A stretch of 64,000 nucleotides of DNA from a virus (lineage: Duplodnaviria > Caudoviricetes). Shown here piece after piece: positions 50,234 through 50,904 of the stretch (position 1 is the stretch's first letter; each line of letters begins with the position of its first letter). Under the pieces are notes generated by a model that worked only from the letters and a program-made list of their open reading frames with translations, was not told the DNA's origin and did no database searches. The DNA is taken from the IMG/VR virus record IMGVR_UViG_3300020412_000001, positions 6,062-70,061 of that record, one strand, 5' to 3'. A program made the position numbers and the translations under genes.

Positions 50234-50515
50234 ACCCGCAGTTTTGAGGGGTGGACAAGGTTTAATATGAATCACTATTGCTTAGTGCAACCTAACGAAA
50301 GAGGTAAGGAACAATTTATTAAAAGTTGGATGCTTACAATGAGTAGAACAGAAGCAGAAGATTACTATAATAGCCTACTTGATGAAGATGGATATATGAA
50401 ACTCCAACTTTGGTCTGCATTTGAATACTTTGGTGATAGTATGAATATTGGAATGGGTGCGTTGCACGCAAATGAATTTTACTTACAAACCGAGCGTTTG
50501 GAAAATTGCGGGTAA
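50180..50515 (+). CDS. Cassette 1 protein (111 aa)
   Basis: Starts in the S1 loop, reads through the right arm (QCIIPVVTRS), stop TAA lies within the terminal GGTAAC. Confidence 0.7.
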   Translation: MKDDNKKNEKEQCIIPVVTRSFEGWTRFNMNHYCLVQPNERGKEQFIKSWMLTMSRTEAEDYYNSLLDEDGYMKLQLWSAFEYFGDSMNIGMGALHANEFYLQTERLENCG

Positions 50516-50904
50516 CGGACGAGTATATGAATAGTAAAAACACGGATTAATAACACATAAATTTATAATAAGATGAAAGTAATAAAATTTGACACACCTA
50601 ACGGACAATTTCAAATTCCACTACAGAAAGTAGCTGAAAATAGAGCAGACTATTACGCTGTAGAAAAATACGGACATAGTAAAGAAAGCCAAGAATACAA
50701 AGAAGAAGTTGATTGGGTAATGGAAGATGATTTTGAAGGGATTGACTGGCTTATAAACAACTCTAACTTTGAAGATTGGACTGATTCAGCTACGAAATTG
50801 AACGATGAAGTTAATGTAACCGAAGATGACTTTTGGTGTGATAGCGAATACTTTGAAATTGTAGAAGCACAAGCGTAGTGTTTTTATTATTTATATACAT
50901 TGTT
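50514..50904. repeat. attC-like site S2 (loop contains a whole gene)
   Basis: AAC-GGACGA-GTATATGAATAGTAAAAACAC ... GTGTTTTTATTATTTATATAC-ATT-GTT; 21-bp arms with two G.T pairs. Confidence 0.75.
50573..50878 (+). CDS. Acidic 101-aa protein inside the S2 loop
   Basis: AAGATG start; stop TAG abuts the right arm at 50878. Confidence 0.7.
   Translation: MKVIKFDTPNGQFQIPLQKVAENRADYYAVEKYGHSKESQEYKEEVDWVMEDDFEGIDWLINNSNFEDWTDSATKLNDEVNVTEDDFWCDSEYFEIVEAQA

Follow-up and report, generated by a model that had tools for sequence, protein, structure and literature searches.

In the current view of integrons, recombination takes place at short folded attC sites with the cargo lying between them, and an IntI-specific domain of the recombinase is needed for folded DNA. 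The attC sites known so far range from about 57 to 141 nt in length, and the cargo is located outside the site. Modules of another type are delimited by pdif, a 28-bp duplex site composed of an 11-bp XerC arm, a 6-bp spacer and an 11-bp XerD arm, for which the host XerC and XerD are used. On Acinetobacter plasmids, such dif modules are served by an Xer-family recombinase, may be ORF-less, are shuffled or replaced singly, and can be inverted (PMC13141974). In phages, including a Polaribacter phage, CALINs with attC-type sites have been identified (Qi et al. 2023, PMC9892861), and some of these sites were recombined by IntI1 in a single-strand delivery assay; the attC predictions are of canonical size, and neither an Xer-like partner nor genes in loops are described in those parts of the paper that were available. 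Screening with IntegronFinder 2.0 indicated almost no integrons in Bacteroidetes (PMC9024848). Here we describe an integron-like array of a 70-kb flavobacterial phage, in which a complete gene is located between the arms of what appears to be a hairpin-type recombination site, a layout not described for integrons. Neither a description of this cassette system nor one of the gene-in-loop layout was found in our literature search.

The array was found in an IMG/VR virus record of 70,061 bp with direct terminal repeats; the window, by which we mean the whole stretch of 64,000 nt analysed, represents bases 6062-70061 of this record and has a G+C content of about 30%. Two junction motifs, YAAC-N5-9-GTAT and ATAC-N3-GTTR, were clustered at 50.1-53.9 kb. 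The whole array (50109-53915, plus strand) consists of eight core-to-core cassettes and a terminal half-site beside the recombinase gene, with YAAC positioned at 50109, 50513, 51006, 51362, 51977, 52365, 52731, 53515 and 53887. Each of the eight YAAC-to-YAAC units carries one ORF, seven on the foldable (plus) strand and one on the minus strand. Throughout the array, two kinds of long-range helix alternate between the two junction types. Helices of the GTTR...YAAC kind were mapped at 50231-50516, 50902-51009, 51195-51365, 51430-51980, 52061-52368, 52550-52734, 52853-53518 and 53638-53890. Those of the second kind start 5-8 nt after YAAC and end 1-3 nt before GTTR; the site with the loop gene, referred to as S2, belongs here together with helices formed by 51372-85 with 51413-26, by 52367-90 with a stretch ending at 52554, by 52741-56 with 52834-49, and by 53525-43 with a stretch ending at 53634. 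The stem sequences in the array are all different from one another, and the same site layout of core, spacer, arms, spacer and core was detected in 24 phage and 29 bacterial site helices. A nucleotide search of 50.1-52.8 kb against GenBank phages gave no match. At several places ATAC-N3-GTTR is located inside ORFs (window 51185-51200 and 52540-52555; related loci L004:340-365 and L005:190-215). Since it is read there in different frames in different genes, this motif is conserved as nucleotides rather than as protein.

The original prediction, that 21-bp arms of S2 enclose a whole 101-aa ORF with a stop codon touching the right arm, was borne out in both parts. The 5' arm (L-box-like; 50523-50543) and the 3' arm (50878-50898), both given for the plus strand and recognized by inverted-repeat search, alignment, folding and shuffling, are 21 nt each, lie 334 nt apart and are 90% complementary. 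The ORF at 50573-50878 is placed between them, and its TAG overlaps the 3' arm by one base. Arm pairing on the plus strand is made of 19 Watson-Crick and two G.T pairs; in each of the two G.T pairs the G is contributed by the 5' arm and the T by the 3' arm, so that every one of the 21 positions is pairable on this strand. Upstream of the 5' arm are an unpaired spacer of 6 nt (50517-50522) and the 5' core TAAC (50513-50516), which conforms to the YAAC-N5-9-GTAT motif, closes the preceding cassette and carries the stop codon of that cassette; breakpoints in relatives fall at this core. Downstream of the 3' arm, the 3-nt ATT spacer is followed by the 3' core GTTA (50899-50905; ATAC-N3-GTTR motif), where the next module begins, and the breakpoints in the related loci L016 and L037 are located directly after GTT. 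In nearly all sites the spacer is 5-8 nt on the YAAC side versus 1-3 nt on the other side. The total span of S2 is 376 nt including the whole ORF. Its cores read GGGTAAC and GTTATAT; YAAC and GTTR alone are conserved among the sites.

Within 49.5-54.5 kb, S2 was the top-scoring inverted repeat. Its score was equalled in only one of 200 dinucleotide shuffles of this 5-kb region, and chance origin of the repeat was rejected on this basis. Inverted repeats scoring 26 or more numbered 12 in the same region versus 2.6 expected, the shuffle maximum being 9. By folding 50500-51035 as single-stranded DNA, the S2 helix was obtained in both the minimum-energy and the centroid structures, and three bases downstream the helix closing the following 108-nt module was present in both; folding in vivo is inferred. 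Search of Rfam, at the gathering threshold on the whole window and in E-value mode on 49.5-53 kb, gave nothing relevant. The 5' arm belongs to a composite motif found three times in the window with zero expected by chance, and each copy sits just upstream of a small plus-strand ORF. The 108-nt module (50902-51009, plus strand) has its own R-box-like GTTA...TAAC helix and forms, together with S2, one core-to-core cassette (50516-51009). As had been claimed, it is non-coding, with no ORF of more than 10 codons. Its G+C content is above that of the flanks, and it folds modestly better than shuffles (z = -2.0).

The 101-aa loop ORF is a real gene, with 68 homologue clusters of about 100 aa and 48-96% identity in a large protein collection and a confident fold (AlphaFold2 model from 48 sequences, mean pLDDT 96). 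It lies entirely within the S2 loop on the plus strand and codes for an acidic protein of unknown function. The protein matched PHROG 17928 (E = 3.8e-9), with no match in Pfam or NCBIfam, and a protein-pattern search against IMG/VR detected no relative. No match of its fold was found among solved structures, and the fold resembles only uncharacterized phage proteins (TM about 0.6). The stretch from the 5' arm to the start codon (50544-50572, plus strand) is a leader composed of GGATTAATAAC and an A-rich tract, invariant among orthologues of the loop gene; the same leader also precedes the ORFs at 51060 and 52418 and is found in related contigs.

The orthologous gene together with arms of 21-23 nt, placed between YAAC and GTT cores, was identified in L073/74, L079/80, L081/82, L083 (a Roseivirga assembly) and L174. 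The module preceding this unit differed from case to case; the short module following it was a closely related 42-nt hairpin in L073/74, L079/80, L083 and L174, and was unrelated in the window and in L081/82. As far as can be judged from sequence comparison, these arrangements support the conclusion that gene and arms travel together as one mobile unit. When five orthologous modules were aligned, 96% of the arm cells were found to pair versus 36-52% with a slid partner, and 7 of the 22 pairs were changed on both sides, demonstrating a helix that is conserved and covarying; the two G.T pairs of S2 were invariant. For a homologous S2 site with an empty loop, as called for by the original prediction, inner arm sequences 3-33 nt apart were searched and no orthologue was found, the five matches being all unrelated local hairpins without junction cores. 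Empty sites exist as paralogues only, represented by S4, S7 and S8 in the window and by many sites in relatives. An inversion switch, which would place one segment in both orientations between fixed inverted repeats, was considered as a further reading; among the relatives compared, neither S2 nor its orthologues occurred in inverted orientation, and one module of the array carries its gene on the opposite strand. L073 and L074 are located on one 123.5-kb JGI contig, which carries two copies of the region with the S2 orthologue; these copies diverge about 20 nt past the CAAC core of the following short module. The array with the orthologue in L174 includes a further cassette (L174:787-1092) with a Tad2-like Pfam match (PF11195, anti-Thoeris family), suggesting that genes against host defence may be among the cargo of cassettes.

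The array ends 50 nt before a plus-strand gene (53941-54741) for a 266-aa Xer-like tyrosine recombinase, the presumed enzyme of the array, which has a Phage_integrase domain (Pfam PF00589) and an N-terminal SAM-like domain (SAM_4). The best NCBIfam model was XerA_Arch (170 bits, below the model cutoff). The NCBIfam IntI model TIGR02249 gave 121 bits in two stretches against a cutoff of 265, and the best stretch covered the first two thirds of the model only. The closest solved relatives are the archaeal XerA structures 4a8e and 5hxy, and by phmmer IntI4 (2a3v) was aligned to residues 17-175 only, the N-terminal part. Judging from these model and alignment scores, the recombinase is not IntI and lacks the IntI-specific insertion. 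In phage contigs with enough upstream sequence, close homologues of the gene have an array, the last detected unit lying about 40-125 nt from the gene, and an array directly downstream of a recombinase homologue was found at no fewer than 17 loci, i.e. at least 17, of Bacteroidota genomes. The recombinase was not found in the examined stretches of L004-L007. A similar terminal sequence after the last YAAC was observed in the window (53891-53940) and in L016 (5916-6003), consisting of TACTATATAT, then ACACC, one base and TGTTAAAC, at or just before the start codon of the recombinase. This terminal sequence is a candidate for the primary (attI-like) site.

Exchange of modules with breakpoints at the cores was demonstrated by comparison of relatives. 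L016 and L037 have three segments in common, which are 98.6-100% identical and arranged in different order. Two of these segments are delimited by YAAC at both ends. The remaining one extends from YAAC to GTT; it represents a loop-gene module in which S2-like arms enclose another ORF, of 75 aa, and it is 100% identical in the two loci and flanked by different neighbours. The module after it in L016 (5798-5915) is a counterpart of the 108-nt module of the window, with 16-17 identical bases at each end and a different interior. Both module classes have been exchanged independently, and single modules have been replaced. In L022, a 441-nt duplication has its left edge exactly at TAAC and its end at the next TAAC.

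The Polaribacter phages Freya_1 to Freya_10 (MT732463-MT732472; L178-L184) are ten cultured near-identical phages, the recombinase of which is 33% identical to that of the window. Around the recombinase gene their genomes are 99.4-100% identical, yet whole cassettes differ immediately upstream. All cassette edges inspected coincide with YAAC, and the isolates share one terminal sequence, which follows the last YAAC next to the start of the integrase gene. Freya_10 corresponds to Freya_9 plus a 307-nt cassette, and Freya_6 to Freya_5 plus a 472-nt cassette cut exactly at the YAAC cores. The extra cassette of Freya_6 consists of a hairpin around the complete annotated ORF Freya6_3 (71 aa), a 3-nt spacer and a GTTG...CAAC module; the hairpin arms (471-485 and 734-748 of L182) form 15 bp, 13 Watson-Crick and two G.T. 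In the paper on the Freya phages, the genomes are stated to measure 44.0-48.9 kb, and neither cassettes nor indels are mentioned (PMC8776804). At the level of aligned genomes, precise gain or loss of cassettes is demonstrated in these cultured relatives. Such gain or loss at cores next to the integrase is documented in relatives, not in the window phage, for which no experiment or read-level evidence is available.

Complete loop genes recur independently in L011 (332 aa, arms of 21 bp), L014 (74 aa, arms of 26-27 bp), L025 (73 aa, arms of 20 bp), L016/L037 (75 aa, S2-like arms) and Freya_6 (71 aa, arms of 15 bp). The GTTR...YAAC module after a loop-gene site is tiny (38-118 nt) and non-coding where checked, with the exception of Freya_6, in which a 42-aa ORF is located inside. 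About ten further sites have an ORF with its start in the loop and its reading frame continuing across the junction, and about 11 loops are empty; these counts are approximate because the automatic chain parser missed weak or interrupted helices such as that of the 108-nt module. The loop-bearing sites measure 376 nt for S2 and up to about 1.1 kb in relatives. The proposal that a site loop can itself serve as cargo space gained support from this comparative evidence, since no fewer than five other arrays have the unit of gene plus arms, with neighbours that differ to the left and to the right; recombination of S2 is inferred, not shown.

Relatives of the recombinase in Bacteroidota, with 32-48% identity, have the same kind of array directly downstream (L093-L157, array after the homologue at about 6001-6800). 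The genomes with such arrays include Flavobacterium, Polaribacter, Flagellimonas, Algibacter, Formosa, Cytophagales and Saprospiraceae. Sites of the bacterial arrays are uniform in size, measuring 110-121 or 173-184 nt with a single exception of 51 nt; they contain no ORF and, where inspected, are often near-identical within one array. Given this uniformity and the absence of ORFs, the loop genes depart from the usual site form, and the departure is seen in phages. The chromosomal arrays of Bacteroidota look like a phylum-wide analogue of integrons.

From these findings we consider it probable that S2 is an attC-like folded-DNA site on which the adjacent recombinase acts, and that cargo can be placed in either loop, the mechanism being inferred. 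S2 would be an oversized member of an attC-like site family that folds as single-stranded DNA and forms part of an integron-like cassette system found in Bacteroidota and in their phages. A site of this family, read on the foldable strand, would have its arm pair set between two cores, with 5-8 nt separating the YAAC core from the 5' arm and 1-3 nt separating the 3' arm from the GTTR core, the arm sequence varying between sites and complementarity being kept within a site. As the GTTR core and following bases pair with the far end of the same cassette, each cassette would be held by two helices, one R-like and one L-like. In S2, a complete gene and the leader belonging to it may have come to occupy the loop of the L-like helix, with the R-like loop left non-coding; because the loops of either helix are topologically equivalent in a circular cassette, cargo could sit in either. 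Strand exchange at the cores by the adjacent Xer-like recombinase, possibly with assistance of host factors, would then carry arms and gene along as a single module. Action of the recombinase on the sites, the need for single-stranded folding and continued activity of S2 are all inferences.

As the foldable strand is the sense strand of seven of the eight array genes in the window, the helices could alternatively function in transcripts, as stems for mRNA processing, stability or insulation or as parts of PeSL-like cassettes, with homologous recombination between the conserved junctions as the cause of module shuffling. G.U pairing is a usual feature of RNA helices, and conserved leaders are located before start codons. 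In addition, PeSL cassettes shuffle genes in T4-type phages and, like the present array, have short conserved elements on the flanks of small accessory phage genes; the PeSL elements mediate modular shuffling and mini-circles (PMC2839356). PeSLs are, however, local stem-loops with sigma-70 promoters and rely on homologous recombination, whereas the helices here are long-range and module-specific, lack promoter or terminator signals and go together with a recombinase, the linkage of the array to a single recombinase clade being tight. For the counting of wobble pairs, G.T and A.C were given equal scores. In phage arrays, helices of the S2 type contained 42 G.T/T.G versus 5 A.C/C.A, and position 11 of the other helix type was G.T in 47 of 62 units. 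In bacterial arrays, read on the ORF-sense strand, site helices contained 53 A.C/C.A versus 5 G.T/T.G, and position 11 was A.C in 59 of 68 units. One strand thus pairs better by computation in both phages and bacteria, and the recombined strand has not been identified. Since fixed positions (GTATG with TATAC, and position 11 of the other helix) contribute part of this bias, it does not represent many independent events. The longest ORF was on the foldable strand in all 24 phage units, and opposite to it in 35 of 37 bacterial units. As the foldable strand is antisense to the bacterial cassette genes, the fold belongs to DNA and not to mRNA, and RNA-level structure was disfavoured on this ground. 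The sole minus-strand gene of the window array (52842-53492, 216 aa), located inside a GTTG...CAAC module, has the orientation typical of bacterial arrays, and its module retains the plus-strand fold polarity. Fold polarity was in this way demonstrated to be independent of transcription; it follows the site, which argues against an RNA role and for folded DNA as in integrons. Cassettes of the promoter-terminator type were also rejected, because neither promoter-like sites (20 versus 27.8 expected, in a scan that omits Bacteroidota promoter types) nor terminator-like sites (2 versus 1.7 expected) were in excess, and no Rfam match supported a function in RNA. A transcript-level role is in our judgement very improbable.

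The junctions could also be those of a duplex system like dif modules, with core sites in alternating orientation, two module classes and no hairpin; 50573-50878 would then be the cargo of one module class, like the C and D modules of Acinetobacter plasmids. Dif modules of two classes alternate alike between inversely oriented bipartite sites, some being ORF-less and some inverted (PMC13141974). The junctions of the phage array alternate in inverse orientation too, modules of either class can be empty or loaded, breakpoints occur at both junction types with replacement of single modules, and the recombinase is Xer-like. What separates the two systems is that the phage array lacks the 28-bp site of 11-6-11 structure: the spacers are unequal, 1-3 nt or 5-8 nt depending on the junction type, whereas that of pdif is fixed at 6 bp, and the arms are module-specific and covarying, as duplex binding sites do not need to be. 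The strand-specific bias for G.T over A.C has no role in duplex DNA and points to folding. The present array also differs in having the recombinase encoded next to it, a single phage-encoded Xer-like gene being seen. We regard a purely duplex system as unlikely, and a role for host Xer proteins in recombination of the array cannot be excluded. Another possibility is that S2 is an inactive relic, the gene having been inserted into the loop or having grown within it and the arms persisting by descent, so that the 376-nt S2 no longer recombines and only its short-looped neighbours do. By inference, long loops lower the chance of folding. Homologues of the loop gene without any arms were found in ordinary phage gene rows (L075-L078, L084/85 and L176/177), and the same gene has lost one arm in L072, which is without the 3' arm, and in L171, which has a deletion in the 5' arm. 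From such copies, the family is an ordinary phage gene taken up as a module, and modules of this type can decay. An S2 persisting by descent alone is nevertheless difficult to reconcile with the compensatory changes that keep the arms across orthologues with differing flanks, with the identical loop-gene module under different neighbours in L016 and L037, and with the loop-gene cassette differing between the near-identical Freya_5 and Freya_6. We consider the relic rather improbable.

The array resembles integrons in several respects. Compact cassettes, most of them with a single gene, are lined up next to the gene for a tyrosine recombinase. Each site forms an imperfect palindrome with AAC...GTT cores and two paired boxes, which are kept apart by an unpaired spacer, and its terminal loop is variable. 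By computation, folding favours one of the two strands, and in bacterial arrays the ORFs are on the other strand. The start and the end of every cassette are complementary to each other, and in Freya phages the new cassette is at the recombinase-proximal end. The differences are as follows. The 266-aa recombinase is Xer-like and without the IntI-specific insertion considered necessary for attC recombination, a point that speaks against our reading. So does the conservation of only four bases per core, YAAC and GTTR, instead of the 7-nt boxes RYYYAAC and GTTRRRY. The R-like helix is 8-20 bp versus 7 in attC, and fixed G.T wobbles are present where attC has extrahelical bases. In phages, the ORFs are on the foldable strand, the array is upstream of and co-directional with the recombinase gene, and the loops hold whole genes or gene starts. 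A loop of 334 nt should fold less readily than one of 30-80 nt, and sites with one arm destroyed, as in L072 and L171, can evidently decay. Finally, breakpoints are located at both junction types, which the strict integron mechanism with one crossover per site does not predict; site and cargo may therefore be two equivalent module classes. Extending this idea, we tentatively suggest, as a possibility well short of a conclusion, that the cassette is a dumbbell with two sequence-free, structure-defined helices, the loops of which are equivalent cargo bays, and, as part of the same conjecture, that a short Xer-like recombinase without the extra domain of IntI recombines the folded strand at both junction types, and that half-cassettes (loop genes, and gene heads reading through the junction) are exchanged independently. 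If this were the case, phages would swap accessory genes, possibly including anti-defence genes, in this manner.

The locus questions the rules derived from attC, as its attC-like sites have loops that can carry whole genes, and it also questions the need for the IntI-specific domain, the neighbouring enzyme being a plain Xer-like recombinase. The system occurs in phages of a phylum that is reportedly nearly free of integrons. Should the sites be active, recombination would depend on structure and tolerate loops of hundreds of bases, and accessory genes of phages would be exchanged as units smaller than a cassette. The cultured Freya phages and their host make the question directly testable, and cassette gain or loss, including that of a loop-gene cassette, is already visible among them.

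Beyond the recombinase gene, at 55397-62363, the window encodes a second integrase, which is larger (436 aa) and has an arm-binding domain; next come genes for a cI-like S24 repressor and an ERF recombinase as well as a replication gene of DnaA_C-like type. With this combination of genes, the phage possesses a conventional lysogeny module that is distinct from the adjacent array. Outside the array, many early genes (44366-49409 and 61389-62508) are preceded by another leader, AACAATTTAAA with an A-rich tract and then ATG, and the copies of AACAATTTAAA fall in the repeat families D2, D4 and D6-D8.
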